64,000 bases of DNA from the NCBI GenBank assembly GCA_028683355.1, contig JAQUIZ010000001.1, forward strand, positions 15,618 through 79,617, read 5' to 3'. Source of the stretch: Fermentimonas sp. (GTDB lineage Bacteria > Bacteroidota > Bacteroidia > Bacteroidales > Dysgonomonadaceae). Made by a program: the position numbers and the translations under genes. Numbering within the stretch: position 1 is the first letter of the stretch; every line of letters begins with the position of its first letter. The notes under the pieces are model-generated. The model searched no databases, was not told the DNA's origin, and saw only the letters and a program-made list of their open reading frames with translations. Below are positions 10,530 to 64,000 of the stretch, piece after piece.

Positions 10530-10556
10530 CAATACCAACCTTTTATCTCACAGATA

Positions 10557-15954: not shown

Positions 15955-15959
15955 GTACT

Positions 15960-16178: not shown

Positions 16179-16191
16179 ATGAATTTACGCC

Positions 16192-18192: not shown

Positions 18193-18198
18193 ATAGTT

Positions 18199-19785: not shown

Positions 19786-19800
19786 AAAACATTCTAGCAA

Positions 19801-22555: not shown

Positions 22556-22655
22556 GACAATAACACTATGCCTGATCGTTTATGCTAAGTATTTTAAAGA
22601 ATAATTCTTTTGAATACATGAAATAGATAAATATTAACAAATTAGACAAATAAGT

Positions 22656-23183: not shown

Positions 23184-23190
23184 TTCGCAA

Positions 23191-24210
23191 ATGGAAAAGA
23201 CAATCGATGGAGTAGTATACTATCTTCCGAGTAATTTAACATCGGAACAAGAAGCCATTTATGTTCACATCATAGACTGGAAGCGAAAATACATCACTAC
23301 GCAAAGAGGTTTATACAGGGGACATGAATACGATGCTATATTCCCAGATGAGAACCCTATCCCAGAAATGCTGTACAAACCGATAATACCATTGCTGAAT
23401 GAAATGCAACAAGGTAAATTTGCTTATAAACCACATAAGTTTGCCTATCACGCCGTAAGTTCACAGACTGCTTGTATCAATCTTTTCATGCCTTTACTCC
23501 TTTCTGAAGATGCAGACAGCATATTACCTATGATTCCAGGATGTCCTGCGGACTTCAGTAAGATAGCAAGAGACAAGTTGTTCAGTGGATTCTGTTTTGA
23601 ATATTGGGGACAAGACATTAAACAAGGCACAGGTGTATTGAATGACCATTCCAGCCAGGCCGGAACGGATGCGGATGTCGCAATTGCGTATTATAACAAG
23701 GAAGACAAATTATGTCTATGGCTTATAGAACATAAACTGAGCGAGAAAGAGTTTACAATGTGCGGTGCATACAAAAGCAAAGCAAATAGAAACAAGCATA
23801 ATTGTTCTCAATGTGATTTCATGAGTATAGCCAAAGAGCCTCAGAAATGCCATTATCACAAGATAGGATATGAATACTGGAATATTCTAAAGAAAAATAT
23901 GGAAAGATTCCAAGGTTTAATTGAGATTGAAGGCTGTCCATTCAAAAACGGACTTAACCAGCTATGGCGTAATCAGATGCTTGCATTTGCGTTGCAGGAA
24001 ACAGGAGAGTATCATACAGTAACTTTCTCGGTATGCCATCATGCAAGAAACACCATGTTAGACAAGTCAATCAATCGATACAAAGCATTAACCTGTGGAG
24101 ATAGAATATTCAGTTCTTTCACCAACTATGATGTTTTGAATGCTGTAACTACGCACGATTATGATTTGCCAAAATGGATACAATGGTATAAAGAGGTCTA
24201 TTGCTTTTAA
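23191..24210 (+). CDS. PD-(D/E)XK nuclease-like protein with a Cys/His-rich insert
   Basis: HAVSSQTACINLFMPLL is followed by GTDADVAIAYYNKEDKLCLWLIEHKLSEKEF (a D ... E-x-K core). After that comes C-x13-C-x2-C ... C-H-x-H. Confidence 0.6.
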   Translation: MEKTIDGVVYYLPSNLTSEQEAIYVHIIDWKRKYITTQRGLYRGHEYDAIFPDENPIPEMLYKPIIPLLNEMQQGKFAYKPHKFAYHAVSSQTACINLFMPLLLSEDADSILPMIPGCPADFSKIARDKLFSGFCFEYWGQDIKQGTGVLNDHSSQAGTDADVAIAYYNKEDKLCLWLIEHKLSEKEFTMCGAYKSKANRNKHNCSQCDFMSIAKEPQKCHYHKIGYEYWNILKKNMERFQGLIEIEGCPFKNGLNQLWRNQMLAFALQETGEYHTVTFSVCHHARNTMLDKSINRYKALTCGDRIFSSFTNYDVLNAVTTHDYDLPKWIQWYKEVYCF

Positions 24211-27764: not shown

Positions 27765-28937
27765 ATGGCAAACGGAGAACTGACATACGATGACTTCCTG
27801 CAACGGTTGGACATACAGGACGTACTGGTGGATGCAGGCTATCACCTGAACAAGCGTGACGGCCTGCGTTATCCGTCCTATATCCGCACGGACAGCAATG
27901 GCACACGCATCCGTGGAGACAAGTTTATCGTGACCGGAGGTGGCAAATGTTGCTTCCAGCCCCCACAGCAAAAGCTCTACAACATCATCTCCTTTATCAA
28001 GTCGTTCCCCGAAAAGTTTGCAGAACACAGAAACGGCGTGTCTCCCGACAGGTTAGTCAACCTTGTCTGTAACCGACTGTTGAACCACCCTATCGAAGAC
28101 AGGCCAATCCGTATCATCCAGCCCAAGCAGCACAGCCGTCCGTTCAGTCTCCATGATTACGACATACACCGTTTTGACGTAAACGACCGGGAGACCCACA
28201 AGCGTTTCTATCCCTACTTCAAGAGCCGTGGCATTGACATCTTCACGCAACGTGCTTTTGCCGACCATTTTTTCTTAGCCACCAAACACAGGACAGACGG
28301 TCTGTCATACGCCAACCTCGCTTTCCCGTTGGTATTGCCCAAAGAGTCTGACAAGGTTGTCGGTTTGGAAGAGCGTGGACGCCCCAAGATGGACGGCAGC
28401 GGCAGCTATAAAGGAAAGGCCGAAGGGAGCAACAGCAGCGAAGGCTTGTGGATAGCCAATTTCAGCGGAGAACCTTTACATCAAGCCGGAGGTGTCGCCT
28501 GGTTTGAAAGTGGCTACGATGCAATGGCATTCCACCAACTGCACCGTGACACCTTCCGGGACAATCCCGAACTTTCCAAGAAAAGCGTGTTTGTCTCCAC
28601 CGGCGGCACGCCCACCGATATGCAGATCAGGGGAATGCTCTCCGCCACCCCGAATGTGAACCACTACCTGTGTTTCGATAACGACAGTGCCGGGCGCGAG
28701 TTTGTAAATAAATTCAGGAGCATAGTGAAATCCATGCACGTCAATCCGGAACAGATCAGAGAAATCCCCTTGATGCCCTGTTACAAGGACTGGAACGATG
28801 CCCTGCTTGGCAAGACGAGCGAGGAATACCTTGACAGCATCAAAGATGCGGTTATTCCTTTGAGTGCGCCACTCGCTACAAAAGGAAGTACAGCCGACGA
28901 AGAAGAAATAAACGAACAATCCACCATCCACAGATAA
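27765..28937 (+). CDS. Toprim-domain protein (primase-like, TraP-type role plausible)
   Basis: The Toprim Glu is in VAWFESGYDAMAFHQL and the DxD motif is in HYLCFDNDSAGREF. The ATG at 27765 avoids overlap with the upstream gene. Confidence 0.7.
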   Translation: MANGELTYDDFLQRLDIQDVLVDAGYHLNKRDGLRYPSYIRTDSNGTRIRGDKFIVTGGGKCCFQPPQQKLYNIISFIKSFPEKFAEHRNGVSPDRLVNLVCNRLLNHPIEDRPIRIIQPKQHSRPFSLHDYDIHRFDVNDRETHKRFYPYFKSRGIDIFTQRAFADHFFLATKHRTDGLSYANLAFPLVLPKESDKVVGLEERGRPKMDGSGSYKGKAEGSNSSEGLWIANFSGEPLHQAGGVAWFESGYDAMAFHQLHRDTFRDNPELSKKSVFVSTGGTPTDMQIRGMLSATPNVNHYLCFDNDSAGREFVNKFRSIVKSMHVNPEQIREIPLMPCYKDWNDALLGKTSEEYLDSIKDAVIPLSAPLATKGSTADEEEINEQSTIHR

Positions 28938-43313: not shown

Positions 43314-43760
43314 CTAAAAAGATGAAGGCAGTAAATCACTCATCCTCTGTTCCGGCAAACCGCAAAAGCCCCGAATGATAGTATCTCCGTTTACGCCATC
43401 AAGTTTGCTGAACATCTGCAAGGAGTCAAATCCTCTGTCGAATTGCTCCTTGCTGACAGCAGGGGCAAAATGAATAACTCCACGTGGATAGCTTTTTGAT
43501 ACACCTATCCACCCACGCAAATAATCATCGAAATGTCCGTCCGCTTTCGACACATAGAACTCTTGCGAATGAGAACTGCAAATGTTCTTTCCGTACATCT
43601 CGTCTCCTAAAATCAGGATTCCGATTTTAGGATTGTACATAAAACGTCTGTTGGCTATTTGAAGAATATCTATGATTTTCTGTTTGATATTGATAACCAT
43701 CAGGGGTTTCCCAATCTCTCTTTTTGCACGTTTGCCTGTGCCGTAACCTTTCTTTTCCAT
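43314..43760 (-). CDS. hypothetical protein (148 aa)
   Basis: Second gene of the middle minus-strand operon. No motif recognised. Confidence 0.5.
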   Translation of the reverse strand: MEKKGYGTGKRAKREIGKPLMVINIKQKIIDILQIANRRFMYNPKIGILILGDEMYGKNICSSHSQEFYVSKADGHFDDYLRGWIGVSKSYPRGVIHFAPAVSKEQFDRGFDSLQMFSKLDGVNGDTIIRGFCGLPEQRMSDLLPSSF

Positions 43761-43784: not shown

Positions 43785-44366
43785 TTATGCCGATATTTGA
43801 TATTCGTGAATAGAGCAGTATGCGTCTTCATTTTTTTCTTTCCATTGCATGACAATCGCATTGACATCCTGACGGGATTTAACTTGTACTTCGCAAATAT
43901 CCTCCAGCCAGTCATATACGCTTTCCAAGTCTTGAAAATACTCGGAATAGTATTCTTCCTCCGAAGTGCATACATCAACATAGTATCTGTCGGGAAAGTA
44001 TTTGCCCTTATCATCATTCGTCCAATACTCACACATACCAGGTTCTTCCGACTGATAGAAATATCGCAGCGTGGGATATTTCTCACATACCATATCAAAC
44101 ATTTCATTGCAGGGAGACCACGCTGTTTCTGTATTGAACGTAAGCACCTCACCGTTGAATTTGAGGTTATCCCACGTTCCACGGCAATATATCTTTTCCC
44201 AACTTTCTCCGAGGGCTTCTACAAGACACCCTAACCACGTAGTTCCAAAACCATTTTGAACGGACGGCTTTTGTCGTTTTTCTAAATCTTTCATTAACTC
44301 ATAGAGTTTTTTCAATTCTGTTGCGTTGCCCTCTATCGCATACGCAGTGCTGCACCAATTCGGCAT
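43785..44366 (-). CDS. acidic Cys/Trp-rich protein, possibly DUF1281/YubB-like
   Basis: The N-terminus MPNWCSTAYAIEGNATELKKL resembles the M-x-N-W-C start of a family I recall from plasmid leading regions. The assignment is tentative. Confidence 0.5.
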   Translation of the reverse strand: MPNWCSTAYAIEGNATELKKLYELMKDLEKRQKPSVQNGFGTTWLGCLVEALGESWEKIYCRGTWDNLKFNGEVLTFNTETAWSPCNEMFDMVCEKYPTLRYFYQSEEPGMCEYWTNDDKGKYFPDRYYVDVCTSEEEYYSEYFQDLESVYDWLEDICEVQVKSRQDVNAIVMQWKEKNEDAYCSIHEYQISA

Positions 44367-44700
44367 AATCGTAAATTTTTATTGTTAGACTTGTTTTTGT
44401 TTCCCTCTGCTTGGAAGCCTTCCGACTTCGCCACCAGGATATGTTTTATGTGCGTTAAAGACTGCGTTACAAGGGAGATAAGACAAGTAAACAAACAAGG
44501 AGTTAATGAAATACCCAATTTCTGCCTGCCGGAAATTGAGGAAAGTTGTCGTTAAGTCCGGTGATTTGTTAGCCGAAGCGATACTTGGTGTTCTCCCACA
44601 GCAGTACCTTTGCACCATAAAACAATCCGCGCGGCGTGGTGGTCGGCTCAAAGGAGAATACTCAAAAAACTATAATGGGTTGTTAGTAGGTAAAACAGAT
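44367..44700 (-). repeat. copy A of the conserved non-coding leader element
   Basis: The core at 44477-44559 matches 47431-47513 at 73 of 83 positions by hand alignment. It contains the hairpin CAATTTC (44516-44522) / GAAATTG (44532-44538). Confidence 0.65.
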
Positions 44701-44850
44701 TTGACCTTTGAGTGGTGCTATAAACGGCACAAGTGGTTGTATAAATGGAAGAATTGCGTACATTGCTATATTTTAACAGGTTACATCTACCACTTTGCGG
44801 TAGAATTAAAACAGTACATCGCTACGGCAATCAGCGAGCAGCCGTAGCCG

Positions 44851-44896
44851 GATACATAAAAGCCACCTGCTACATTGTATATCGTAACAAGTGGCT
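44851..44896 (-). terminator. candidate terminator after the pcfJ-like operon
   Basis: 44861-44869 pairs with 44888-44896. This gives 9 bp on the minus-strand RNA including one G-U; the same position is a C-A mismatch on the plus strand. The stem is followed by UUUAUGU. A second hairpin is GCTACGGC/GCCGTAGC at 44821-44848. Confidence 0.4.
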
Positions 44897-44916
44897 GACG
44901 AAAAGAACAAAACAGA

Positions 44917-46182
44917 TTATGCTGTCATACGCTTACGGATTTGCCGTGCGTTTTTCTGTACAAGTTGTATGATGCGGTCGTGGTATTCTGTGTTTTGGTT
45001 GCAAAGCCCTCTTGATTGCAGGACTTTGAAATTTTCAAGCGACAGTTCAACAGTCTCAATGCGTTTGTCATTTATCCGTGCAGAGAAAACCAAAGACTTG
45101 GGTTTGAGGTAGTATTCGCATTGTCCCACACAATGATGTAAAGCATTTCCCTCTTTGTAATAATCATCCACACTCTCCAACACGCTGACTACAATCAGTC
45201 CGTCAGTGAATGACAATCCAAAGAATTTGCCTTTCAACTCTCTGAACTTCTCCTCATTCTCCTGCGCCTTTTTCTGCTCGGCTTCACGTTTCTCTCGCTC
45301 TTGGATAACCCTTACCCTCTCTTGATAGCGGTCGTGCTCGGCTTTCAAATCCAATGGGCAGACATAATGGGCATTGCGAATATCCTTGCCACACCTTTCA
45401 AGCAAGCGGATGTAATCCACCCAAAGGGAAATGTCGGATATGTGATAATTGTTACGCATCACTATCTTATAAGTGTTCCAATACAAATCAAAATACATAG
45501 GGTGTTGCAGAAAATAGTTCAAATCCACCTTTCTCCCTGCCTTGAACATCGTTTCGGCTCTACTGTCCTGCAACAAGGCTTCAATCAGCTTCGTTGGCTC
45601 AATCTCCGACAAAGAACCTCTTAGTCCGTTGCGTCTTAACTTGGTTGTGGCAGAATAATAAGGATAAACCTTGCAATCGGCAATCCGCCTGTAAACATTA
45701 TTGTCGTTCCGCAGTTCTATATGATTGTCAAAGACAAAGCTGTCTATATAGTAGCCGAGTGTACGCCTTAATGCCGTTACTTCTGTCTTGCCATTATCAT
45801 CAATCCAATAACGGACTACCTCCATAGAGTAAAAATCGGCTTTCTTGCCCTTGCGATAATGAGCCGTCAAAAGGAACACCCTCTGCACCTGTAAGCCGTC
45901 TTGGGTTGTCAGTATGGAGTAATAGGATTTGTCTTTATACTTACGCTGTAAGGTGTTGCGTATCTCCAACTTTGTATCGCAGCGAGGGCAACGGCAGGTC
46001 TTTTCTCTGGTCTCGCTCCATTGGTGTCCGCAATCCATACAGGTGGTCATACCGCTTTTGGCACGGAACGCATAATGATTTAAGCAATGGCGAAATGCCC
46101 ATAACTCTTGCTTCTCGGTCAGTGGCAGTAACCGCTCATTGGCGGTTACTACCTTGTGCTGTAATCTCGTCTTGGCTCTCAT
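44917..46182 (-). CDS. pcfJ: PcfJ-like protein
   Basis: 421 aa with N-terminal Cys pairs (CMDCGHQW ... CRCPRCD) and C-terminal GNALHHCVGQCEYY typical of PcfJ-like proteins. The PcfK-like gene lies immediately upstream. Confidence 0.75.
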   Translation of the reverse strand: MRAKTRLQHKVVTANERLLPLTEKQELWAFRHCLNHYAFRAKSGMTTCMDCGHQWSETREKTCRCPRCDTKLEIRNTLQRKYKDKSYYSILTTQDGLQVQRVFLLTAHYRKGKKADFYSMEVVRYWIDDNGKTEVTALRRTLGYYIDSFVFDNHIELRNDNNVYRRIADCKVYPYYSATTKLRRNGLRGSLSEIEPTKLIEALLQDSRAETMFKAGRKVDLNYFLQHPMYFDLYWNTYKIVMRNNYHISDISLWVDYIRLLERCGKDIRNAHYVCPLDLKAEHDRYQERVRVIQEREKREAEQKKAQENEEKFRELKGKFFGLSFTDGLIVVSVLESVDDYYKEGNALHHCVGQCEYYLKPKSLVFSARINDKRIETVELSLENFKVLQSRGLCNQNTEYHDRIIQLVQKNARQIRKRMTA

Positions 46183-46619
46183 AGTCCTAAATCAAATAGT
46201 GATGGTTGGGTAACTTCCTGTTTCGTTGCTTTCTGGGTTGGCTTGGGTCTGCTGTTACGTTGTTGTATCTTCCGCAGTTCCTCGTCTTGATAGGCTTTGA
46301 GTGCCTTTTCCCTCGCTTCGGCTTGCTCTTCGGGAGTAAGTTCTACCCTATGATTGACTATCACACCGCAATTGACGGCTTTACCCACCTCTATATTGTC
46401 TTCATCATAATAGTGGGTACAGAGAGAATAAACCTCATTGTCGGTCATTCCACAACCGCCCTCTTTGCATATAGCCATTGCTTGGTTGAGTACAAATGTG
46501 ATGCAATCGTCCAAATTCTTGTTCTCTTTGGCATACGACACGGCAAAGAGTTCATCCGTCTTGGCTCTATCGTCCAAATATGCCTTTATGGTCTGCTTGA
46601 ATTGTTCTGTTCCTTTCAT
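46179..46619 (-). CDS. pcfK: PcfK-like protein
   Basis: The N-terminus MKGTEQFKQTIKAYLDDRAKTDELFAVSYAKENKNLDDCITFVLNQ matches my memory of Bacteroides PcfK-like proteins. It has a 4-nt overlap with the pcfJ-like gene. Confidence 0.7.
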   Translation of the reverse strand: MKGTEQFKQTIKAYLDDRAKTDELFAVSYAKENKNLDDCITFVLNQAMAICKEGGCGMTDNEVYSLCTHYYDEDNIEVGKAVNCGVIVNHRVELTPEEQAEAREKALKAYQDEELRKIQQRNSRPKPTQKATKQEVTQPSLFDLGL

Positions 46620-46627
46620 ATCGTCTG

Positions 46628-46840
46628 TTATTTTGCTTGATAATAAATACTTGGCTCACTTGAAACATTGTAGATGTATGCTCCGCACCTTACCAACAAT
46701 GCCTGTTTACCATAATACAATCGCTTCATTTCTTTGACACTGCCTGTGTTATGGAAGTTGGGAAATCGGCTGATATTACAGCGTTCTCCCTGCTCTTTGG
46801 TCATTCTTCGTGTTCTCATAGCATTAGAAATGATAGTCAA
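46628..46840 (-). CDS. hypothetical small basic protein
   Basis: 70-aa ORF that overlaps the upstream gene by 17 nt. Coding status uncertain. Confidence 0.35.
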   Translation of the reverse strand: MTIISNAMRTRRMTKEQGERCNISRFPNFHNTGSVKEMKRLYYGKQALLVRCGAYIYNVSSEPSIYYQAK

Positions 46841-47309
46841 TCACTCCACTGATATACAGCAATGTTCCAGGCACTAATTGGCTTACCACTCGCAGAAACT
46901 CGTAAGATTCTTCGGCAGCTCCGTTGATACACTGCTCGTCCATATAAAATTGATAGCCGGTGTCAAGCGGATTTTTGAGGTACTTTTCAAGTTGGTACAC
47001 CTCGCCAATCCAAAGAGTGCAGTTCTCTGTGGTAACGGCTTTCGCCTTTTCTTGCAAGGTTGCCACAAATTCCTCTTTCCATTTGTCCGCACCGCCATTG
47101 TAACGGATTGTATCATCTGAAACAAGCTCAAACATACCTTTGGGCAGAATGTTATTTATCAGATTGTCGATGTGGAATTTACGCTCTTCCTCGTCAATCT
47201 CCGAACAATAGTCATAATAGTGTCCGTCTCCTTGTTCAAGGGTGCAGTCGTTCAGAATGTTGTCTTTTAGAGGTCTCTCTTCTGTGATTTGAAAAATCTT
47301 GCTGTGCAT
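46824..47309 (-). CDS. acidic hypothetical protein (161 aa), first gene after leader copy B
   Basis: Rich in Asp/Glu. First ORF of the pcfK/pcfJ operon. Confidence 0.5.
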   Translation of the reverse strand: MHSKIFQITEERPLKDNILNDCTLEQGDGHYYDYCSEIDEEERKFHIDNLINNILPKGMFELVSDDTIRYNGGADKWKEEFVATLQEKAKAVTTENCTLWIGEVYQLEKYLKNPLDTGYQFYMDEQCINGAAEESYEFLRVVSQLVPGTLLYISGVIDYHF

Positions 47310-47665
47310 AATCTGTCTGTTTTAATCGTTGAACTTTTATTTTTTCTTTTCCCTCATTTTTGAAGCCTTTATCGGCTTTCTTGTCGGGATCTGAATTTTA
47401 CGTGCATTCAGAGACTGTGGACTACAGAGGGATAAGACAAGTAAATGCCAGAGGAGTTGATGAAATACCCAATTTCAGCCTGCCGGAAATTGCGGAAAGT
47501 TGTCGTCAAGTCCACAAGGCATTAGTGGAGCCAATCGGAGAATCGGTACTTGGCGTTCCCTCGCCGCAGTACCTTTGCAAAGGAAAATGGAGCCGACAAG
47601 AATAGCCGGAGAAGCTCACAGTATTGTGATAATAGAAACAGGTATAATGGTCTGGTAGTAGGAAT
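47310..47665 (-). repeat. copy B of the conserved non-coding leader element
   Basis: Contains the 16-mer TTTTTTCTTTTCCCTC (47340-47355) and the core 47431-47513. It has the hairpin CAATTTC (47470-47476) / GAAATTG (47486-47492) and a second hairpin at 47545-47573. Confidence 0.65.
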
Positions 47666-47682
47666 TATAAAACAGGATAAAA

Positions 47683-47808
47683 TATAACAAAACGGCAAAC
47701 TCGATGTATATTTGCCAAAATCGTTATAACATTCGCAGCGTTATCTTACTAACAGTATAACAAAAATGGCAAACCACATTGTTATATGCCAAATTTGTTA
47801 TAACTTTG
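47683..47808 (+). promoter_or_regulatory. two tandem imperfect palindromes plus a -7 box upstream of abiEi (candidate autoregulatory operator and promoter)
   Basis: Unit 1 (47683-47730) is TATAAC-n5-GGCAAA ... TTTGCC-n6-GTTATAAC. Unit 2 (47756-47804) is TATAAC-n6-GGCAAA ... TGCC-n6-GTTATAAC. TAACTTTG (47801-47808) fits TAnnTTTG, 22 nt before the ATG. Confidence 0.55.
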
Positions 47809-47830
47809 CAGTATAATTCAAAAAGCAATA

Positions 47831-48559
47831 ATGACTGCTGTAAATCAAATAATAGATATTGCTAAGAAACAGGATGGCATATTCACAAGAAAAGACTTGT
47901 TGAATGTGGTACGATTTGGTATGAAAAACATATCAGAAGGGTCTCTTGCTGTGCTTTTGAATAGGATGATTGCAGAAAACAAAATCATTAGGGTTTCATA
48001 CGGGAAATATAAATTAAATGAAGATTTGAAGCATGAATTTTTGTATGAACCAAACGAATTTATGCTTTCACTCAACAAGCATATAAAAGAAAAATTTCCT
48101 TTCATCGACTATTGTATATGGCAACCGTCTGTATTTGCATCAATGATGCTACATGTACCTGCGGTAAGAACCACATTAGTAGATGTTGAAAGGGAAGCGA
48201 TGGAATCTGTTTTTATGTCATTACAAAACGTCGAATCAGAAATCCCTATTTTCTTGAATCCGTCCCAAGAAGATGTGGACAGATACATTACAAATAGAGA
48301 CTTAATTATTGTCCGCCCTCTTGTTAAAGAGGCTCCATTAGATGTTATAAATGGTTGTCCCGTTCCCACATTGGAGAAAATGCTTGTTGATGCCATATCT
48401 GACAAAGAACTACAACATCTTCAAGGCAATGAATTATATACTATATATTCAAACGCATTCTCTGACTATGCAATCAAAAAAACAAGGTTATTGAGATATG
48501 CGGCACGTCGCAACCGAAAACAAAAAGTTGAACAAATTATCAATACAATCAATATATGA
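47831..48559 (+). CDS. abiEi: AbiEi-like antitoxin / transcriptional regulator
   Basis: 242 aa with a winged-helix-like N-terminus. It has a 4-nt overlap with the downstream AbiEii-like nucleotidyltransferase gene. Confidence 0.7.
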   Translation: MTAVNQIIDIAKKQDGIFTRKDLLNVVRFGMKNISEGSLAVLLNRMIAENKIIRVSYGKYKLNEDLKHEFLYEPNEFMLSLNKHIKEKFPFIDYCIWQPSVFASMMLHVPAVRTTLVDVEREAMESVFMSLQNVESEIPIFLNPSQEDVDRYITNRDLIIVRPLVKEAPLDVINGCPVPTLEKMLVDAISDKELQHLQGNELYTIYSNAFSDYAIKKTRLLRYAARRNRKQKVEQIINTINI

Positions 48560-49620
48560 TACATCCCGATAGCAGGACTTTGTCTTGGATAGAACAAGTC
48601 GCCAAAGACAATAAGATAAAAGATATAACCCTCGTTGAGAAAACAATCCGTGCATTCTCATTGTTGGAAGCATTGGCTCGATCGGGTTGCCCATTTTTGT
48701 TCAAGGGAGGTTCGTCCTTAATGCTTCATCTTGATACAGGCAAACGACTTTCTATCGATATTGATATAATATGTCCTCCTGGAACAAGAATTGAAGATTA
48801 TCTTGAAAAGTATTCCGAAGAATATGGCTTTGGAGAGGTCAAATTGGTAGAGCGTATCTCTCGTACCGATATTCCGAAACAACACGCCAAATTCTTTTAC
48901 CAAGTGGCATATCCGGCAGGAGGACGTCAGGATAAGATTTTGTTGGATGTATTATTCGAGGAAATTCATTATGCAAATGTAGTGGAACTTCCTATTCAAA
49001 GCCGGTTGTTAAAAACAGAGGGAGACCCCATAATTGTAAAGTTACCAAGTAAAGAGGATTTGCTTGGCGATAAATTAACTGCATTTGCTCCTCACACGAC
49101 CGGGATTCCTTTTTTCAAAGGAGAAAAGAATTGCTCAATGGAAATATGCAAACAACTATTTGACATTGCATCTCTTTTCGATATTGTCAATGACTTGTCC
49201 ATTACAACAGAGACATTCAATAAGTTTGCGATGGTTGAACTTCAATACAGAGGTGAGAGTCCTGATGCAATTCAAAAAGTTTTGGATGATATTTATGATA
49301 CGGCTAAATGTATCGTAATGCGTGGACAAGATAATCAAGAAGAGTTTGACATGATTCAAGATGGAATAAAAAAAGTGCGTGGCTTTATTCATAGTGAAGT
49401 CTATACTTTGGAAAGTGCTATCACAAATGCTTCAAAAGCCGCCTATCTCGCTAAACTTATCGGCAAAGGAATACACGAGGTAAAACATTATAATCCGTCC
49501 GAAGCGAATTTATTAATCAACACAACGATACAACCTCCATTATCAACTAAGTTGAACAAATTTAAGAAGACAAATGCAGAAGCGTTCTTCTATTGGAGTG
49601 AAATACAAAAGTTAGGATAA
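48556..49620 (+). CDS. abiEii: AbiEii/AbiGii-family nucleotidyltransferase toxin
   Basis: FLFKGGSSLMLHL and GKRLSIDIDIICP match the GG-[ST]-x-L and R-x-S-x-D-x-D motifs of AbiEii-type NTases. Confidence 0.8.
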   Translation: MIHPDSRTLSWIEQVAKDNKIKDITLVEKTIRAFSLLEALARSGCPFLFKGGSSLMLHLDTGKRLSIDIDIICPPGTRIEDYLEKYSEEYGFGEVKLVERISRTDIPKQHAKFFYQVAYPAGGRQDKILLDVLFEEIHYANVVELPIQSRLLKTEGDPIIVKLPSKEDLLGDKLTAFAPHTTGIPFFKGEKNCSMEICKQLFDIASLFDIVNDLSITTETFNKFAMVELQYRGESPDAIQKVLDDIYDTAKCIVMRGQDNQEEFDMIQDGIKKVRGFIHSEVYTLESAITNASKAAYLAKLIGKGIHEVKHYNPSEANLLINTTIQPPLSTKLNKFKKTNAEAFFYWSEIQKLG

Positions 49621-51256: not shown

Positions 51257-52708
51257 TTATCGTTTCTGTTTTTTGCCGGAAGCCGGACGCATCATCTTGC
51301 TTGCCATCATCATACACCGTCTTGCCCAGGCCCGGTTGTCCTCGTCATCGTCCCGTCCCCATTTAAGGTCACTGGAGCTTCCACCACCGCCATGCGTTTC
51401 GGCAAAAGTAGTGGCATCATTGACCATTCCGAGAAACAGAAGCGTGGCGCAGTGCATCACTTCCGATCCTTGTTCCGTCAGGCTTTGCAGTAATGAACCG
51501 TCAAATCGGGACTGTTCGGAAAGTCCCATTTCTCCCAATCGTACCGAGTGCTCCCTGACCAATGTTTCCAACATTACATCTTTGAGCAGCACATCCACGT
51601 TGGAATGGATTTCACGGCTGTACTTATAGGCTTCGCCTTTCAACTCCTCCGTGCGCTCGCCAATGGCATCCATGTCCCTTTTAAGGGCTTCAAGTTGTTG
51701 GTCAGCCGTCCGTAGCTTATCCTGCTTGTCTTCCAGTTTCGTTTGGATAGAAGCCAGTTCCTTTTCCAACCGATCCCTCTCTGCTATAATGGCAGCCGTA
51801 TCTCCCTGATGGGATTGAAGTGTGCGCTCCAATGCCGACAACTGGTATTCCTTTTCCGCTTTCGCCTTTCTGAGGTTGTCCACCATTGAGGTCAAACCTT
51901 TCACCCTGCGTTCTGCCAGACTGATTTCCACTTTTAGGTCGGACAGTGCTTTTTTGTGTTGGACAACCTGTTCTTCGATATTGGTACATTCTTCCGAAAG
52001 GTGTCGGCGGTACTCTTCGGTGGTGCGGTGTTTTGCGCCGGTCTCGGATATACTGCTACCACGTGACATTCCCCAACGCTTGTTCACTTCTGAGAAGTCG
52101 CTATGTAACTGCTTCATCCGTGCGCTGAACTCGTACTTGTCCTTTCCTGCAAAAATCTGCTTGTATGCAAACTTGCCGTCACGGATTGGCAACAAGGTAC
52201 AATGCGCATGGGGATTCAGTTCATCCATGTGTACGATAAAAGCTGCAATGTTCTCCTCTCCATATTTGCCACAAACGAATGAATAGACGTCCTTGGCCCA
52301 TTCTTCAATATCCTTGCACCTCTCGACATGGGAATTGTCCGCTCCCTTATCAAAATTTACAATCTGACTGCCGAAAGCTATTTCGTGCATACGTTCACGT
52401 GAACCTCCGAAAATAAAATTGACCACCGTGCGGAAACGTGGCTCTGCCAAACCTGCATTTGGGTCTTTGATTCCTCTCGCCAACAAATTATCGGACATTC
52501 TTTCCGGGATGCTCCGTGTCTTGTCTATCGGGCAGACCTTGCCTGCCCTTATCTCAAAATTCAAATGTTCTCTTGTCGGATCATAGTTCCCGACCGACAT
52601 GGCACGCTCCCAGCCTTTTTCCGTCCACCTGCGTTGGTGTTCGTTGCTTTGTGCTGTGGTTATGCCTTTTGATGGTCGGAAATCCATCACCTGCTTTGCA
52701 TTTGCCAT
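51257..52708 (-). CDS. MOBV-type (Mob/Pre family) relaxase
   Basis: The HxDExxPHxH signature VHMDELNPHAHCTLLP lies in the N-terminal domain. There is a long coiled-coil-like C-terminal half. Confidence 0.8.
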   Translation of the reverse strand: MANAKQVMDFRPSKGITTAQSNEHQRRWTEKGWERAMSVGNYDPTREHLNFEIRAGKVCPIDKTRSIPERMSDNLLARGIKDPNAGLAEPRFRTVVNFIFGGSRERMHEIAFGSQIVNFDKGADNSHVERCKDIEEWAKDVYSFVCGKYGEENIAAFIVHMDELNPHAHCTLLPIRDGKFAYKQIFAGKDKYEFSARMKQLHSDFSEVNKRWGMSRGSSISETGAKHRTTEEYRRHLSEECTNIEEQVVQHKKALSDLKVEISLAERRVKGLTSMVDNLRKAKAEKEYQLSALERTLQSHQGDTAAIIAERDRLEKELASIQTKLEDKQDKLRTADQQLEALKRDMDAIGERTEELKGEAYKYSREIHSNVDVLLKDVMLETLVREHSVRLGEMGLSEQSRFDGSLLQSLTEQGSEVMHCATLLFLGMVNDATTFAETHGGGGSSSDLKWGRDDDEDNRAWARRCMMMASKMMRPASGKKQKR

Positions 52709-52939
52709 ATTCTCTTTTCTGTTTTTCGGACATCCTGTTTGCCCCAGCTTGCTGCTTGTCCGGGCACCTCTCCCGATAGCTTTATGCTATTGGGGTATTA
52801 GGCTACCCATACTTCCCTCTGTTTGGTCAACGTGCAAGCACTGCTGCACGCTTAAAATGGCAAGCCTACAAGTGTAGGGCATCACGGTTCATCCGTGGTT
52901 ATACAATAAGTTTTTGACTTACAACACCGGTTGTGGAGT
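52709..52939. other. candidate oriT region upstream of the relaxase gene
   Basis: 231-nt non-coding gap with several short hairpins (CCTACA-ag-TGTAGG, CACGG-ttcat-CCGTG, GTGCA...TGCAC). Mob/Pre-type oriTs usually lie next to the relaxase gene. The nick site is not identified. Confidence 0.3.
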
Positions 52940-55242: not shown

Positions 55243-56337
55243 TCAAATGGATGTGAGCATTATCTTGATCAGTACTTCGGGCAATACCTGCCATTGGTCA
55301 TTTTCCGTCCCAATAATCTTGTTTAGATTGGCTATCATCAACGGTGTATTGTTTGCAACCTCATAAAGTTTTATCCTTTCAGTTTCGGACATGACAGTCA
55401 TACTGAAACCGTCCAATGAAATATATGGTTGTAACAACATCCATACATAGGCCCTTGCCTGTTCTTCACTCTTGACTCTGTTTTGGTCTATGTCATCACA
55501 ACAAACCAAAGCATTGAGGACGATTCGCCGGTTAGTACGCTTGGCTGTATATACCAAAGCATCTCGGTAAGAGAGCCTGCCGTTCTCCGCTGACTGGAAT
55601 ATCGACAGACAGCATTTTTCAGTTTCATTTGTAATGACAGACAGATCTGCATCGGCAAGCTCCGGAAGATGGCTCAGGAAAGAACGGAACATCCGGTCTT
55701 CCTCTTGTATAAAGGCTAACATCTTGTCTTTGGAGTCTATTCCGGATTTCAGAGTATTGACAAGAAAGGATTGGTAGATTGACACAGTTTGTTTTGCGTT
55801 TCCGTGACACGGTGCTACTGAATCCAACGACCTGAAAAAAGGTTCTGCATCTGTTACCGCTTGTGCCAGTTCTGTGTCTTTTCGATATTGGGAAGTCTTT
55901 TCTTTGATTAGCAACACATCAGCGAAGCTCCGTGGTTGGGACAATGCCAATCGGGTAAATTCAATCCGCAAAGAATCATGTAGCATCCGAACTGTGTTTT
56001 CAGGATTTTGGTGTGGTCGGCTTGTCGTGCCTTTAGCAATACAGGCATAGACTGAATCCCTGAGTATCTGCCATTCCTTGACAGACTCAATCAGTCTCTC
56101 AGTTGAGATAGTTCCCATATTCCGTACTTCGGACAGGTATGACTTGTAGGCATTGGCTGCCTCTTCGTCAGTCTGAAATATATAGTTGTCAGTCTTATTT
56201 CCGCATGATGCCAGTGCGACAGTGGCAAAGCATACGGCAAGGAGTTTGGCACATTGTCCACGTATTTTGGAGTATGATTTACACTCCACACCTTTTTTTA
56301 TCAGATCTGTTTTCTCGTTAAATAAACCTTTAAACAT
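55243..56337 (-). CDS. putative lipoprotein (364 aa)
   Basis: Lipobox-like ATVALASCGNK after a hydrophobic segment. The remainder is helical-looking and unassigned. Confidence 0.5.
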   Translation of the reverse strand: MFKGLFNEKTDLIKKGVECKSYSKIRGQCAKLLAVCFATVALASCGNKTDNYIFQTDEEAANAYKSYLSEVRNMGTISTERLIESVKEWQILRDSVYACIAKGTTSRPHQNPENTVRMLHDSLRIEFTRLALSQPRSFADVLLIKEKTSQYRKDTELAQAVTDAEPFFRSLDSVAPCHGNAKQTVSIYQSFLVNTLKSGIDSKDKMLAFIQEEDRMFRSFLSHLPELADADLSVITNETEKCCLSIFQSAENGRLSYRDALVYTAKRTNRRIVLNALVCCDDIDQNRVKSEEQARAYVWMLLQPYISLDGFSMTVMSETERIKLYEVANNTPLMIANLNKIIGTENDQWQVLPEVLIKIMLTSI

Positions 56338-57731: not shown

Positions 57732-59522
57732 ATGAACTACTTGAAAATTACCGATAGCTTAAAAAAGGAAGTTGAGCCCAAGCTAAAGAATTACTTTCCT
57801 GGAAGATGCTACAAGACGGAAACAAATCATTATCACGACAATCGTTTCATCCAATTGGAGACTATTCTCCACGATATCGATATACATTACGAATACTATC
57901 AAGGATACGTTGAATTGCACCTTGAAGGGAAATTTAGCGGTTATGAATATAATACTATTTGGAGAGAGTTAGTTGAAGAATCTTATCAGCATCAAGAACT
58001 AAGTTGGCATAGATGGGGTAATCGTAATCAAGGCCGGTGTAGAATCAATATTTCTATTCAGTCTACAGACGATATCATCAAATGCTTTGAGAAAATATCT
58101 AAAATATTCGACCCTGTGCTATCTCCTTTATCAGCAGAGCATGAAGACACAGAAGTTATAATGCAGCAAATAGAAAAACTGGAGATTCTTCCACCTGCCG
58201 ATAGCATGCAAGTAGAAAAACTAACATACGGCATTCTGAAAATAAGGGAATTGCCTTTCAACAACTTCGTAATCCCAGAGTATCAGCGTCCATACAAATG
58301 GGGTGTAAAGAATGTCAATCAGTTAATAAACGACCTTTTGCATTTCAGAGATAGCGAAGAATACAGACTTGGAACTATTGTGCTTCATGAGAACAACATA
58401 GTGGATGGTCAACAGCGTATAGTCACCCTATCTTTACTCCTGTACAAACTGTTCGGCAAAAAAGAGATAAGGGCTGCGAATCCTTATCAGGAAGTACAAG
58501 ATAGAATAAAAACATTTTGGAAACGGACTGAATTTAAAAACGAGCATTCGATTGGCCATGTGAGAGAGAATCTGACAGCTATTGAAGATAGATTGGATGA
58601 TTTGGACGAGGATTTCTTGGATTTCCTTCTGAACAAATGTCAGTTCGTTGTAGTTCGTCTGCCAGAAATTTCCGAAGCATTCCAATTCTTCGATTCTCAA
58701 AACGCAAGAGGAAAAGATTTGGAACCGCATGATTTATTGAAAGCGTTTCATCTTAGGGAAGTCAAAAAACTTTCTGAAAAGGACGGCGATAACATCACAA
58801 AATGGCAGGAACTTGACACTCAAAGACTGGTTGATTTGTTCCTGACTTTGTATAGAGTCAAAAGATGGGCTAAAAACAACAGCGGAAAAGAGTTCACCAA
58901 AGACAATATTGACGCTTTTAAGGGCATATCTCTGGAAGATAAACGGTATCCTTTTTATATGCAGCAAATTATATGTCACTTCTTCTCATCGTTTTATGCT
59001 AATGAGCCGTCCAGATTGATAGATCGGTCAAAGATGGAGTTCCCTTTCCAGATAGATCAGATTTGCATCAACGGAAGCCGTTTTTTTGACATGATTCGCT
59101 ATTACGATGCTTTATATCATAAAATCATAGACGAGAACGAATATAAAAAATATGACTCGATAGAAGATGAAAAGTCAGCATATAAAATCGTCCGAACTTT
59201 GAATGCCTACTCTAACAGAACTCGTACTGGAGATACTTATGTCCGCCAGTTATTTAATTGCCTCTTGATTTATTACGTTGATAGATTTGGCTTCGCAGAA
59301 ATAAACAAAGTGGTAAAAAAGATTTTCAGATATGCATATCAAATTCGTTTGGTACACTATAGTGTTCAACTTCCAACAATAGATAATAGTGCCATTAACG
59401 GTGTTATGTTCAAAGCTATTCGTGATGCCCAGTCTCCTTATGACATCATTAATCTCATGATTCCACAAATTGGGCCGTTGGCATCAAATGCTGATTCTCA
59501 GATTAAACAACTATATGACTGA
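57732..59522 (+). CDS. DUF262 (ParB/GmrS-like NTPase) domain protein without a recognisable nuclease domain
   Basis: FVIPEYQRPYKWGVKNVNQLINDLL and VDGQQRIVTLSLLL. An unassigned N-terminal region of roughly 180 aa precedes DUF262. No His-Me/HNH motif at the C-terminus. The ATG at 57732 is preferred to the GTG at 57690. Confidence 0.8.
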   Translation: MNYLKITDSLKKEVEPKLKNYFPGRCYKTETNHYHDNRFIQLETILHDIDIHYEYYQGYVELHLEGKFSGYEYNTIWRELVEESYQHQELSWHRWGNRNQGRCRINISIQSTDDIIKCFEKISKIFDPVLSPLSAEHEDTEVIMQQIEKLEILPPADSMQVEKLTYGILKIRELPFNNFVIPEYQRPYKWGVKNVNQLINDLLHFRDSEEYRLGTIVLHENNIVDGQQRIVTLSLLLYKLFGKKEIRAANPYQEVQDRIKTFWKRTEFKNEHSIGHVRENLTAIEDRLDDLDEDFLDFLLNKCQFVVVRLPEISEAFQFFDSQNARGKDLEPHDLLKAFHLREVKKLSEKDGDNITKWQELDTQRLVDLFLTLYRVKRWAKNNSGKEFTKDNIDAFKGISLEDKRYPFYMQQIICHFFSSFYANEPSRLIDRSKMEFPFQIDQICINGSRFFDMIRYYDALYHKIIDENEYKKYDSIEDEKSAYKIVRTLNAYSNRTRTGDTYVRQLFNCLLIYYVDRFGFAEINKVVKKIFRYAYQIRLVHYSVQLPTIDNSAINGVMFKAIRDAQSPYDIINLMIPQIGPLASNADSQIKQLYD

Positions 59523-59527
59523 TTATT

Positions 59528-61495
59528 ATGAATGATATACAAGAACTTACAATAAAAGAATTACTCTGCGGCAGTGAATATCGAATTCCTATTTATCAAA
59601 GAAATTATGCTTGGGGCTTAGGCGAAACAACCCAACTTATTCAGGATATAGCGGACTATGCGAAAGATTCACCCGCAAACAACTATTACATAGGAAATCT
59701 TATTGTGTTCCCAAGGCATTACAACAACAGCCTGTATTTCGAGACAATTGATGGACAACAGAGAACAACAACTATAACTATTCTCTTATGTGCGCTAAAA
59801 CACAACTATGCAAAATATGACCTATCTTGGTATTCCAAAGTAAATATCTCTTTTGACCATAGAGAGAAATCAAACCTCACGTTGTCCGCGCTGTACAATA
59901 ATCCTGAATCTGTCAACTATGACGTTGTCAATGCAAATATAATGGCTGTATATAACAAAGCGTGGAGTATAGTTGATAAGATTTGTCAGGATAAAGAGAT
60001 TTCCGTTTCTACTTTTATTGATTATCTACTTAATAAGGTAATCATTCTTCGGATAAGTGTTCCCAAAGACACAAACCTTAATCACTATTTCGAGATAATG
60101 AACTCCAGAGGGGAGCAACTTGAGCAGCATGAAATCGTGAAAGCACAACTTATGTCTCCAATCAAGGACAATCAGTCTACTATGGCTGCTTTTAATCTGA
60201 TTTGGGAAGCCTGCTCTAATATGGATAGATATGTTCAGCTAAATTTCTCAAAAGCCACAAGAGAACAAATATTTGATAACAATGGCACTGAAAATATTAA
60301 AATTTCATTCAATGATTTAGCTGCATTATACAATAAAAATTCCGTTCTTGGTAACGAAGAAAAAAATCATTCTTTAGAGCGGTTATTCTTAGATGCTGCT
60401 AACAACACACCTTATAGTAAGCCATGGGAAGAAGGTCCCGACAAAGATCAATCAGAAACTTACCATTCATTGATTACTTTTTCCAACTTTCTTCTTCACG
60501 TCTTAAAAATAATCCGTCCGGCCAATAAAGAAGTAGTGCTGGATGACAAAAGGTTGACAAAGATTTTCAAAAGCGTGATTAAAAGCGAAAAAGACGCTGC
60601 TGGTTTCAGCATCGAGTTTATTATGAAACTCCTCGATTTACGTCTTCTCTTTGATAAATACATCATTAAACGAAAACAAGATAAATGGAGTCTGAAGAAA
60701 TTATTACCTCAAAAAGCAGATAAAGATAAATATTATTACAAAGACACATTCTCACAAACAGAATACGAAGATGATGGATCTGGACAAAACCGTAATATAA
60801 TTATGCTCCTATCAATGTTTCATGTGTCAGCACCGACTCAGATATATAAGCATTGGATGAATGCCAGCTTATACTATGTCTATAATCATAGGAATACAAA
60901 TGCTACTGAATATGCGGAATATTTATGGAATTTATCAAAAGCATATATGTTAGATAGATACTTAGCAATCCCCGAAAATAAGGTTCCATTTGAGACTATT
61001 ATATTCGAGAATAATGGAAAGAGTGTAAATCACGATAAAGATATCCTATGGTCAAATATCAATATAGACGAGTACCCACAAAAAGGAGAACATGTGGAGA
61101 ATTTTGTATTTAACTTTTACGATTATCTGTTATTGAAAGAGACAAAGGATACAGATTTTGAGTTTTCGTACAGAACTTCTGTAGAACATTTCTACCCACA
61201 ACATCCAACGGATAAAGATCCAATGGATTTTAACCATCTACATAGTTTTGGGAATCTGTGTCTTGTCAGTAGGGGTATGAATTCAAAATTTACTAATAAT
61301 CTCCCGGGAGCAAAATATGAAAACTTTGGTGATGCCAAAGCTATGAAGACCTATAGTCTCAAATTAAAATCCATGATGAATACCATTAAGAAAGGAGAAA
61401 GGTGGGACGAGACGAAAATTGCTCAAAAAGAACAAGAAGCAAAAGAATTGATCAGTAAGGCTCTATTGTCAGAAAAGCCATTAGAATGCTTTTAG
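59528..61495 (+). CDS. DUF262-DUF1524 protein (GmrSD-like type IV restriction enzyme family)
   Basis: YRIPIYQRNYAWGLGETTQLIQDI and IDGQQRTTTITILL form the DUF262 part. The C-terminal His-Me finger-like motif is TSVEHFYPQHP ... FGNLCLVSRGMNSKFTNN. Confidence 0.85.
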   Translation: MNDIQELTIKELLCGSEYRIPIYQRNYAWGLGETTQLIQDIADYAKDSPANNYYIGNLIVFPRHYNNSLYFETIDGQQRTTTITILLCALKHNYAKYDLSWYSKVNISFDHREKSNLTLSALYNNPESVNYDVVNANIMAVYNKAWSIVDKICQDKEISVSTFIDYLLNKVIILRISVPKDTNLNHYFEIMNSRGEQLEQHEIVKAQLMSPIKDNQSTMAAFNLIWEACSNMDRYVQLNFSKATREQIFDNNGTENIKISFNDLAALYNKNSVLGNEEKNHSLERLFLDAANNTPYSKPWEEGPDKDQSETYHSLITFSNFLLHVLKIIRPANKEVVLDDKRLTKIFKSVIKSEKDAAGFSIEFIMKLLDLRLLFDKYIIKRKQDKWSLKKLLPQKADKDKYYYKDTFSQTEYEDDGSGQNRNIIMLLSMFHVSAPTQIYKHWMNASLYYVYNHRNTNATEYAEYLWNLSKAYMLDRYLAIPENKVPFETIIFENNGKSVNHDKDILWSNINIDEYPQKGEHVENFVFNFYDYLLLKETKDTDFEFSYRTSVEHFYPQHPTDKDPMDFNHLHSFGNLCLVSRGMNSKFTNNLPGAKYENFGDAKAMKTYSLKLKSMMNTIKKGERWDETKIAQKEQEAKELISKALLSEKPLECF

Positions 61496-63212: not shown

Positions 63213-63593
63213 TTATTTCTTGCCTTTTTTCGTTTTCTTTTCCGGTTCCGCAGGAATTTCCTCCTTGTCGGGTGTCTGGTAAAACTTGTTAGCGACCATG
63301 ACGATGCGGTTGTGTTTCACGCCGTCCTTGTCAATCCATTCTTCGGGTTTGAAGTAGCCCTCCACTGTGAGCAGGGTGCCCTTGGTGATTTGGGCAAGCG
63401 AATCGGTGTTGGCGTTGTTGCGCCAGGCTTCCACATTGATGAAAGCGGACACACGTTTCGTTTCCTCGCCGCTCTTCTCCTGACGGCTTACTGCCAATGA
63501 GAAGCGTGCTACGCTTGCGTTTGCGAACTGACGGATTTCTGCGTCCTTACCTACGAATCCTGATACTGCGAAATTGTTCTCAATCTGTTTCAT
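63213..63593 (-). CDS. ssb: single-stranded DNA-binding protein (OB fold)
   Basis: The start is the ATG at 63593. MKQIENNFAVSGFVGKDAEIRQF ... FINVEAWRNNA ... TLLTVEGYFKPEEW has an SSB-like OB-fold pattern, with a Lys-rich tail. Confidence 0.75.
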   Translation of the reverse strand: MKQIENNFAVSGFVGKDAEIRQFANASVARFSLAVSRQEKSGEETKRVSAFINVEAWRNNANTDSLAQITKGTLLTVEGYFKPEEWIDKDGVKHNRIVMVANKFYQTPDKEEIPAEPEKKTKKGKK

Positions 63594-64000
63594 GTTACAA
63601 TGCTTTAAGTTGTTAATTAAATTATTTTTACGCTGCCAATATAAGTGAGTGCAGTTACAGGGGTGCGACAAGGTTAGCAATCAAATACTCTTTATTTTTG
63701 TCAGCGTAAGCCGTCAAAACTTACGGTCAGATAAAGGAAGATTTGTGAAGCTACACCATTGACCAAGGCTTTTAGCCGTACCCGGCTGCATACTAACTTT
63801 GCAACGGAAAAATGTGTGATAACACGACCAAAAGCGGTTGTGAAACGGGTTGATGAAAAAAAAATGAGCAAGGCTTCGTGAGTGGACAGCATCCGTCCGT
63901 AAATGTAAGTTTGAATAAACGCTCCGGCTGTAAGTCCAAAAGAAGAAGTATGATCGGAGAGGAACGAGTATTGTCGCCAAAAGTGGATGCCGGACAATGC

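Follow-up and report, generated by a model that had tools for sequence, protein, structure and literature searches.

A covarying hairpin repeated upstream of genes in Bacteroidales conjugative elements is a candidate single-strand promoter

RESULTS

Two copies of a noncoding element precede minus-strand genes

The 64,000-nucleotide (nt) stretch of Fermentimonas sp. DNA analyzed here (positions 15,618 to 79,617 of contig JAQUIZ010000001.1, assembly GCA_028683355.1; referred to as the window and numbered from its first letter) is part of a Bacteroidales-type integrative and conjugative element (ICE). It holds two copies of a noncoding element, each located upstream of a minus-strand gene. Copy A precedes the gene for G193, a protein of 193 amino acids (aa) that starts with MPNWC (43785-44366, minus strand; isoelectric point [pI], 4.4) and is the first in an operon reaching 40729. 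Copy B precedes the gene for the 161-aa protein G161 (46824-47309, minus strand; pI 4.5), which is followed by pcfK (46179-46619, minus strand) and pcfJ (44917-46182, minus strand). Located 3' of pcfJ, a terminator-like hairpin (44861-44896, minus strand; a 14-bp stem and then TTTAT) divides the pcfJ operon from copy A and the G193 gene. The latter gene therefore needs a promoter of its own.

A preliminary description, made from the letters of the window alone, had noted that the DNA upstream (in the minus sense) of 43785-44366 is closely related to that upstream of 46824-47309. Indeed, blastn aligned the two regions with 73% identity over 239 nt (E value, 1e-30). In the 83-nt core that had been aligned by hand (44477-44559 against 47431-47513), the stated 73 identical positions were confirmed exactly, and the gap-free core shared by both copies comprises 88 nt with 86% identity. 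The blocks TACTTGG[TC]GTTC, GCAGTACCTTTGCA, and TATAATGG..TAGTAGG, which had been listed as shared, are present in both copies. The open reading frames (ORFs) inside the copies, 44506-44847 and 47360-47605, use different frames of the core, as had been stated: the copies are offset by 2954, which makes position 47360 equivalent to 44406 and gives frames 1 and 0. Furthermore, neither ORF is kept in relatives, and the indels between copy types are not multiples of three. These results support the view that the copies are a conserved noncoding element, selected at the nucleotide level.

The element, first placed at 44367-44700 and slightly larger than that report had it, is thus conserved and repeated, but the three copies then counted were not recovered: blastn (word size 7), an nhmmer profile, and an iterated profile each found only two in the window. 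Rfam gave no match at gathering thresholds across the whole window and none at an E value of ≤1 for 44300-47900, and the element therefore belongs to no family known to that database. Nor is it a fragment of an insertion sequence (IS) or a miniature inverted-repeat transposable element (MITE), since its position and orientation relative to the start codon are fixed in all loci. Finally, it is conserved outside this genome, with relatives in gut metagenomes and in Bacteroides, Phocaeicola, and Alistipes genomes.

Relatives keep a fixed register to the downstream gene

An exact scan of species-representative genomes with the apex pattern of the hairpin described below gave one true match, in an Alistipes metagenome-assembled genome (MAG) with the same ICE, and one chance 18-mer; the pattern was too strict. 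A scan of metagenome contigs yielded 44 human-gut loci, and the profile built from them uncovered a further type, in which the apex is replaced. More diverged copies were detected at loci encoding 56-70%-identical homologues of the downstream protein, among them loci of Bacteroides uniformis, B. acidifaciens, and a Xylanibacter-type element. One more copy was found in a Phocaeicola record of PLSDB (OY726012, listed as a plasmid), which is without annotation at the match. The pooled set contained 69 distinct copies with at least 180 model positions, from which 17 representatives with less than 88% identity were drawn. There was no match outside Bacteroidales elements in the searches made: the apex pattern had none in viral contigs, and blastn (E ≤ 0.01) had none in 5,426 complete Escherichia coli genomes and plasmids.

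The copies always lie upstream of a gene that is on the strand opposite to the folded one, and the distance from core to ATG is fixed at 152-176 nt. At least three unrelated gene families (G193, G161, and G94) were found behind them. In other Bacteroides ICEs, small genes are parted by gaps of 400-500 nt, each of which contains a homologous copy, with five in a row at locus L047; one of these arrayed elements adjoins genes of a type VI secretion system. At locus L055, a copy is located directly upstream of an ssb gene. At L016 (7282-7663), the nearest long ORF (439 aa) starts 285 nt from the core instead of the usual 152-176 nt.

Each copy folds into one long hairpin, and the template strand folds better

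As a single strand, each copy forms one long, imperfect hairpin of about 250 nt. The copy A hairpin covers 44393-44670 on the plus strand (robust core, 44406-44657; apex loop near 44525-44529; profile match, 44400-44682), and that of copy B covers 47373-47608, also on the plus strand (profile match, 47347-47654). When all intergenic gaps of the window were folded, these two were the outstanding long hairpins. The folding energy of copy A as single-stranded DNA (ssDNA) was -54.3 kcal/mol for the plus strand (z -4.25) versus -47.2 kcal/mol for the minus strand; for copy B, the values were -52.1 kcal/mol (z -3.2) versus -42.5 kcal/mol (z -1.4). For both copies, the better-folding plus strand serves the downstream gene as its template. 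This strand bias is general: with DNA parameters, the template strand was the better folder in 69/69 distinct copies, by 9.5 kcal/mol on average (range, 0.9-17.6), and with RNA parameters it was the better one in 66/69. In line with this, an alignment of 46 sequences contained 283 G.T cells versus 110 A.C cells.

Covariation supports 85-88 pairs of the hairpin. In alignment A3, which has 34 distinct rows, 86.5% of the cells were pairing, compared to 36-46% when the partners were slid by one to three columns. Pairs changed on both sides numbered 15 (3-8 when slid), and the covariation score was 0.189 (at most 0.084 when slid), a value reached by none of 500 shuffles. With 46 sequences, including the apex-replaced type, 17 of 88 pairs were compensatory. 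In the apex-replaced type, the sequence of the tip is wholly different yet still pairs, and the promoter spacer described below has changed jointly with its partner, from CTGCG/CAGCAG to CTATGG/CCATAG. RNAalifold with DNA parameters collapsed to 10 pairs on the 46-sequence alignment because indels in the arms were not aligned in register; the majority of the minimum-free-energy structures was used in its place. The apex loop reads TGCCTGCC, ACACTTGG, or TAATGGCACATTC. In the copy at L029 (6253-6560), 23 nt are inserted into the 5' arm close to the apex.

Bacteroidetes promoter boxes are present on the template strand only

The genome-wide consensus of the Bacteroidetes -7 element is T-12 A-11 H H T-8 T-7 T-6 G-5 (PMC6847099; the element is also described in PMC7366714), and a sigma-70-type promoter scan was uninformative for this phylum. 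It had been reported that the minus strand of copy A lacks a TAnnTTTG box. We found none on that strand in 44250-44920, and none on the minus strand of the copy B region (47200-47835). The plus strand, in contrast, has one: the shared block GCAGTACCTTTGCA holds TACCTTTG, a perfect match to TAHHTTTG. In copy A, this box (44605-44612, plus strand) is situated in the 3' arm and is the sole TAnnTTTG on either strand in 44250-44920; in copy B, it is found at 47570-47577 (plus strand), again in the 3' arm. A TTG contributed by the shared block TACTTGG stands 17 nt upstream of the box in the window copies and resembles a -33 element. In copy A (44585-44587, plus strand), it is embedded in the near-invariant CGnTACTTG and fully paired with CAAGTA of the first arm (44484-44489); in copy B (47550-47552, plus strand), it lies inside GGTACTTGG. 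The -7 box of copy A is partly inside an internal loop, with A44606 and C44607 unpaired and a bulge of GTT (44454-44456) in the opposite arm. All copy types have a duplex TTG region and a -7 box with some unpaired bases. The gene strand, that is, the complement of the arm opposite the box, reads AGTCTTTAACG, which is not a box.

The same was true of the relatives. At the homologous template-strand column, TAHHTTTG is present in 68/69 copies (TACCTTTG in 60, TAACTTTG in 7, and TATCTTTG in 1); the only copy without it has a 1-nt deletion and comes from a contig with, by its name, about 2x coverage. On the gene strand, TAHHTTTG was detected in 0/69 copies. Similarly, of 20 gaps in the arrayed Bacteroides elements, 19 have the box in antisense and 17 are free of it in sense. 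A conserved yTTG invariably stands 17-18 nt ahead of the box (yTTG-N17-18-TAHCTTTGCA); the sequence of the spacer differs between copies and covaries with the other arm. Among the 17 representatives, the longest invariant block is GTA.CTTTGCA; next come CG.TACTTG and the partners of both in the other arm, where GATAAGACAAGTAAA and TTTTAyGTGC are near invariant. In distant relatives, the distance from box to ATG is about 200-256 nt.

Directly 5' of the -33-like TTG (44570-44582 in the window), most copy types form a minor side stem-loop or bulge in which a (T)TAGCnnnnGCGGTAC-like motif recurs. Single-strand origins (sso) of the ssoA type have as signature motifs RSB and CS-6, the latter being TAGCGT in the terminal loop. 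No CS-6-type motif was present in the apex loops of the element, and a TAGCG-like motif was seen only in the side bulge of some copies. The bulge motif thus superficially resembles the TAGCG core of CS-6 but lies outside the terminal loop.

Start sites were predicted with the spacing rule for G(-5) (PMC6847099), which places position +1 about 5 nt past the G of the box; the partner base was then read from the pair list. For copy A, the predicted start is 44449 (minus strand), the template-arm partner of 44617, giving an 83-nt leader to the ATG at 44366. For copy B, the same rule puts +1 at 47582, the template-arm partner of which is 47401.

We also observed a hairpin upstream of the ssb gene of the window (63213-63593, minus strand). 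In the gap 63594-63870, the plus strand gives a hairpin of about 190 nt (63624-63812), the fold of which is not significant (z -0.9). Its 3' arm contains TAACTTTG at 63794, at a distance of 201 nt from the ATG of ssb, and the gene strand is without a box, a layout as in the element; homology of 63624-63812 to the element was not detectable. Weakly, these features suggest that it may be the third copy of the preliminary description or a very diverged analogue.

The downstream proteins are small, acidic, and unnamed

G193 and G161 are small, acidic proteins that are widespread in Bacteroidales, those related to G193 being widespread in Bacteroides, and their homologues are all unnamed. The Pfam search with G193 gave only a subthreshold match to DUF1281_C. 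For the downstream proteins, no match was obtained in NCBIfam or by PDB sequence search, and PHROGs matched only families of unknown function. An AlphaFold2 model of G193 (mean predicted local distance difference test score, 90.5) had no significant fold match in the PDB. Given the context of their genes, an establishment or antidefense role of G193 and G161 is our guess. A label as antirestriction proteins was considered and is not claimed, acidity (pI 4.4-4.5) being its sole basis. Comparison with L002 and other loci showed that the gene after that for G193 (43314-43760; 148 aa) is missing from the copy of the ICE in the Alistipes MAG and from several metagenome relatives, a presence/absence polymorphism inside an element-driven operon.

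The element is part of a conserved backbone with a MobM-family relaxase

TraM, TraN (DUF4138), and the coupling protein are encoded at 2.8-8.2 kb of the window, and the tra set of the ICE is of mating pair formation type B (MPF-B). Two ArdC-like genes are located at 34.5-40.6 kb, and a Toprim-domain primase candidate is encoded at 27765-28937. Both copies of the element lie in a 16-kb run of codirectional minus-strand genes, which extends from 56.3 kb down to 40.7 kb and contains, besides pcfK and pcfJ, a Mob_Pre relaxase gene and an OmpA-domain gene. The relaxase (51257-52708, minus strand) was assigned to the MobM family (Mob_Pre, MOBV) by its Pfam match and its match to PDB entry 4LVI (MobM). 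The backbone kept in more than 20 loci, with all genes co-oriented, is as follows: HTH283, relaxase-OmpA, optionally AbiEi/AbiEii, the element, (G94) G161 PcfK PcfJ, optionally AbiE, the element, and G193 through u208. The relaxase gene is thus a conserved backbone neighbor, and the element-driven genes always share its orientation.

The AbiEi/AbiEii pair of the window (DUF6577 plus nucleotidyltransferase; 47831-49620) is a movable insert between the OmpA gene and copy B. Comparison of L003, L023, L025, L033, L034, L037, and L044 showed that several relatives are without it, and that in others a pair with about 35-50% identity is situated between PcfJ and the next element copy. Just upstream of abiEi, the sequence 47671-47830 folds unusually well for its composition on both strands (z about -5). 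It contains repeated GGCAAAC/TATATTTGCC motifs and two plus-strand TAnnTTTG boxes (47707 and 47801) and is probably the promoter and operator of abiE.

The first gene of the long minus-strand run (55243-56337) has a gene-strand box, TACCTTTG at 56369 (minus strand), 32 nt upstream; therefore, unlike the two element-preceded operons, this operon head has a conventional duplex promoter. Elsewhere in the window are two defense clusters. The first (8332-24210) encodes SIR2-like, N6/N4 methylase, RhuM, ResIII helicase, SMC-like ATPase, HerA-like ATPase, and PD-(D/E)XK nuclease proteins, and also, at 19801-22555, an OLD-family ATPase-TOPRIM protein beside a UvrD-like helicase, a Gabija-like pair. 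The second (57732-61495) comprises two adjoining GmrSD-family genes.

The region upstream of the relaxase gene (52709-52939) resembles an origin of transfer (oriT) and has several short inverted repeats. One of them, CCCGATAGC-TTTAT-GCTATTGGG at 52772-52794, is a putative recognition hairpin of the oriT and is relevant to the question of which strand is transferred. In a second ICE lineage, its stem is wholly replaced yet still pairing (CCCAC-CGAC...GTCG-T-GTGGG), a clear covariation of the kind typical of relaxase recognition hairpins.

DISCUSSION

A proposed promoter on folded ssDNA

A gene strand lacking a duplex promoter, a box on the other strand, and a hairpin around this box together point to a promoter that operates on folded ssDNA. 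On the strength of the sequence features, we favor with moderate confidence the interpretation that each copy is a single-strand-active hairpin promoter of the Frpo/ssi type, rebuilt for the Bacteroidetes housekeeping sigma factor, sigma-ABfr. In such a promoter, about 250 nt would fold back once the plus strand of the ICE becomes single stranded. The 3' arm would then act as the nontemplate strand, offering TTG, a spacer of 17-18 nt, and TAHHTTTG, while the 5' arm would be the template; the -33 region would be presented as a perfect duplex and the -7 box in a preopened internal loop. RNA polymerase would start about 5 nt past the box, copy the 5' arm, and leave via the base of the hairpin into the gene about 80 nt farther on (43785-44366 for copy A and 46824-47309 for copy B). 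In double-stranded DNA (dsDNA), where the gene strand is without a box, the genes would be silent or little transcribed before transfer. Synthesis of the complementary strand could be primed by this RNA as well, as in Frpo and single-strand origins. The use of the boxes by RNA polymerase on ssDNA, the start site, the transfer of the plus strand, and the timing of expression are inferences from these features.

A bolder version, which we put forward as a speculation more apt to fail than to hold, is that the pair of boxes is a switch set by the state of the DNA. On the folded single strand, transcription would be directed into the adjacent gene; on duplex DNA, it could proceed only in the reverse direction, toward the 3' end of the gene upstream or into a terminator close by. 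The small-gene arrays of Bacteroidales ICEs would accordingly stay off in resident cells, perhaps even silenced by antisense RNA, and be expressed once, in order, upon entry. If so, these would be the first single-strand promoters for sigma-ABfr, and each copy would flag an uncharacterized "zygotic" gene of gut Bacteroidales for establishment or antidefense.

Several points weigh against a single-strand promoter. As duplex DNA, the boxes ought to be capable of starting transcription in the direction that leads away from the gene. The assignment of the TTG as a -33 element is uncertain; its spacer is about 2 nt shorter than the canonical one, and the -33 element is itself weakly defined. The compensatory changes mostly separate a few lineages, and independent events are thus fewer than the cell counts imply. 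The most serious points concern the transferred strand. The nick made by MobM of pMV158 is in the coding strand, at a site upstream of mobM that lies 8 nt 3' of a hairpin (PMC5737340, PMC3105389). By analogy, the transferred strand here would be the minus strand of the window, the wrong one; if this analogy holds, the copies would instead have to function in donors, on the exposed nontransferred strand, an entirely new mode. If, on the other hand, the plus strand is nicked upstream of the relaxase gene, the copies would be at the last-entering end rather than in the leading region, a position more suitable for priming than for a leading-region role. Comparison of the oriT-like region with the inverted repeat of pMV158 (IR1+8 and the nick) was ambiguous, with a loose resemblance on both strands. 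The sole hint to the contrary is a wobble in the oriT-like hairpin of the window lineage: the plus strand has G.T at a pair that would be A.C on the minus strand, which favors plus. The driven genes and an ssb gene have the same orientation as the relaxase gene, which fits the rule for F.

Other explanations of the hairpin and its boxes

The position of the copies is compatible with a single-strand origin of the sso/ssi type, in which the hairpin promoter would mainly make a short primer RNA for the complementary strand, gene expression being secondary or absent. We judge it unlikely that this is the principal role. The anatomy is that of an RNA-polymerase-dependent sso (PMC4595007), a long hairpin that is specific for strand and orientation. 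In relatives without the AbiE insert, copy B is directly downstream of the relaxase-OmpA operon, which can be compared to sso1 of ICEBs1 immediately downstream of nicK (PMC4595007) and to ssoU and ssoA flanking the MobM cassette (PMC5737340). With a plus-strand nick, the copies would come near the 3' end of the transferred strand, well placed for priming a full-length complement. For priming, however, arrays of up to five copies, each at a fixed distance from the ATG of a small gene, would be superfluous. The RNA would be read in the sense direction of the adjacent gene, for which no other promoter is present, and the ICE also encodes its own primase candidate with a Toprim domain. Priming and a promoter role are not exclusive: the title of the 1997 paper by Masai and Arai attributes both roles, transcription and primer RNA synthesis, to Frpo.

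The plus-strand TTG-N17-18-TAHHTTTG would also make a plausible ordinary duplex promoter for sigma-ABfr, directed toward higher coordinates. It would fire away from the gene and yield an antisense or noncoding RNA against the 3' end of the upstream gene, and the inverted repeat would serve to bind a protein or be palindromic by coincidence. In favor of this, one copy type has a strong hairpin terminator about 45 nt beyond the element. Such an RNA, beginning some 5 nt past the box, would, however, hold only the last 40 nt or so of one arm, leaving 85-88 covarying pairs over 250 nt and the near-invariant blocks of the first arm unexplained. The sequence 3' of the box is poorly conserved save for its complementarity to that arm, and the consistent strand bias in stability would likewise have no reason. 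We therefore consider this explanation quite improbable. The preliminary description implied a different one, namely, a stable RNA or a processed 5' leader. The element would then be a structured RNA in a long 5' leader or intercistronic region of the minus-strand mRNA, serving as a processing site, stabilizer, or riboregulator. A fixed register directly upstream of genes would suit such an RNA, any hairpin folds on both strands, and read-through from upstream operons is conceivable for copy B. This part of the description was not supported. Of the two strands, the gene-sense one lacks a promoter box and folds less well, in 69/69 copies by DNA parameters and in 66/69 by RNA parameters; in an RNA of that sense, the invariant G.T pairs would become A.C mismatches. 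Furthermore, a terminator lies upstream of copy A, Rfam has no match even at E ≤ 1, and the invariant promoter consensus of the opposite strand would be unexplained. A structured leader is thus very hard to reconcile with the data.

To a mobile repeat (the remnant of a MITE or IS) or chance similarity, we give practically no credence. The sequence is repeated, palindromic, and noncoding, as a mobile repeat would be, but an E value of 1e-30 between the copies is at odds with chance. The relatives have the same orientation and distance to the start codon and are always inside conjugative-element backbones, no flanking direct repeats were reported around either copy, and the imperfect arms show covariation, not decay. 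The failure to find matches outside Bacteroidales elements, in E. coli genomes, or (with the apex pattern) in viral contigs is a further argument against mobility.

Implications

Single-strand promoters explain how plasmid genes for antidefense and establishment are expressed before the incoming DNA becomes double stranded, and they have so far been recognized by sigma-70 boxes or by similarity to Frpo. The searchable literature contained nothing that links Bacteroid* to ssDNA promoters or Frpo, and a large survey of leading regions used sigma-70 boxes and made no mention of Bacteroid*. If the element is a single-strand promoter, its signature (a covarying hairpin, TTG-N17-18-TAHHTTTG on the template strand, and no box on the gene strand) would find the early-expressed genes of the ICEs that dominate gene flow in the human gut, and the family would predict which strand is exposed. 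Dozens of unnamed small acidic proteins of the G193, G161, and G94 families, found on hundreds of contigs, would become candidate establishment or antidefense factors. It would also mean that the Bacteroidetes RNA polymerase can use a premelted hairpin promoter, and the element would be a natural part for transfer-triggered expression in Bacteroides engineering.

Comparison with known single-strand promoters and origins

The closest parallels are the leading-region promoters of IncF and IncI plasmids, namely, Frpo1 and Frpo2 of F and ssi of ColIb-P9. The Frpo stem-loop rebuilds -35 and -10 boxes; the two copies in F, which are 92% identical and about 5 kb apart, are each needed for early expression of leading genes, one is located upstream of ssb, and both are inactivated by duplex conversion (PMC9849209, PMC11541004). 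The element shares with Frpo/ssi a noncoding ssDNA stem-loop of about 300 nt, in which the boxes for the host polymerase are rebuilt on one arm. In both, the folded strand is the template of co-oriented downstream genes (establishment genes in F), no duplex promoter is present on the gene strand, two or more diverged copies lie a few kilobases apart, and a copy occurs upstream of ssb (L055 in our set). However, blastn detected no sequence similarity in the 5,426 complete E. coli genomes and their plasmids: the element would work like Frpo without being its sequence relative. Its boxes are of the Bacteroidetes -33/-7 type (TTG...TAHHTTTG) instead of TTGACA/TATAAT, its hosts are Bacteroidales ICEs with an MPF-B tra set and a MobM-family relaxase, and it forms arrays of up to five copies. 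A position in the leading region and the identity of the transferred strand, which are part of the comparison, are putative for the element.

With the sso (ssoA and ssoU of pMV158, sso1 of ICEBs1), it has in common a hairpin that is specific for strand and orientation and that would be active only as ssDNA and used by the host RNA polymerase, as well as a place beside the relaxase gene: sso1 comes after nicK, and ssoU and ssoA surround mobM, which encodes a relaxase of the same family (PMC4595007, PMC5737340). The difference lies in the product, since the sso primer is short and antisense to the genes of the displaced strand, whereas the predicted RNA of the element is sense to a gene at a fixed distance. 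No homology was detected, the element being set apart from the sso by description and not by a similarity search against sso sequences. A possible precedent outside Proteobacteria is the Bacillus plasmid pLS20, for which a single-strand promoter of the establishment genes of a conjugative element is reported (PMC6294495); the phylum and the sigma factor differ from those considered here.

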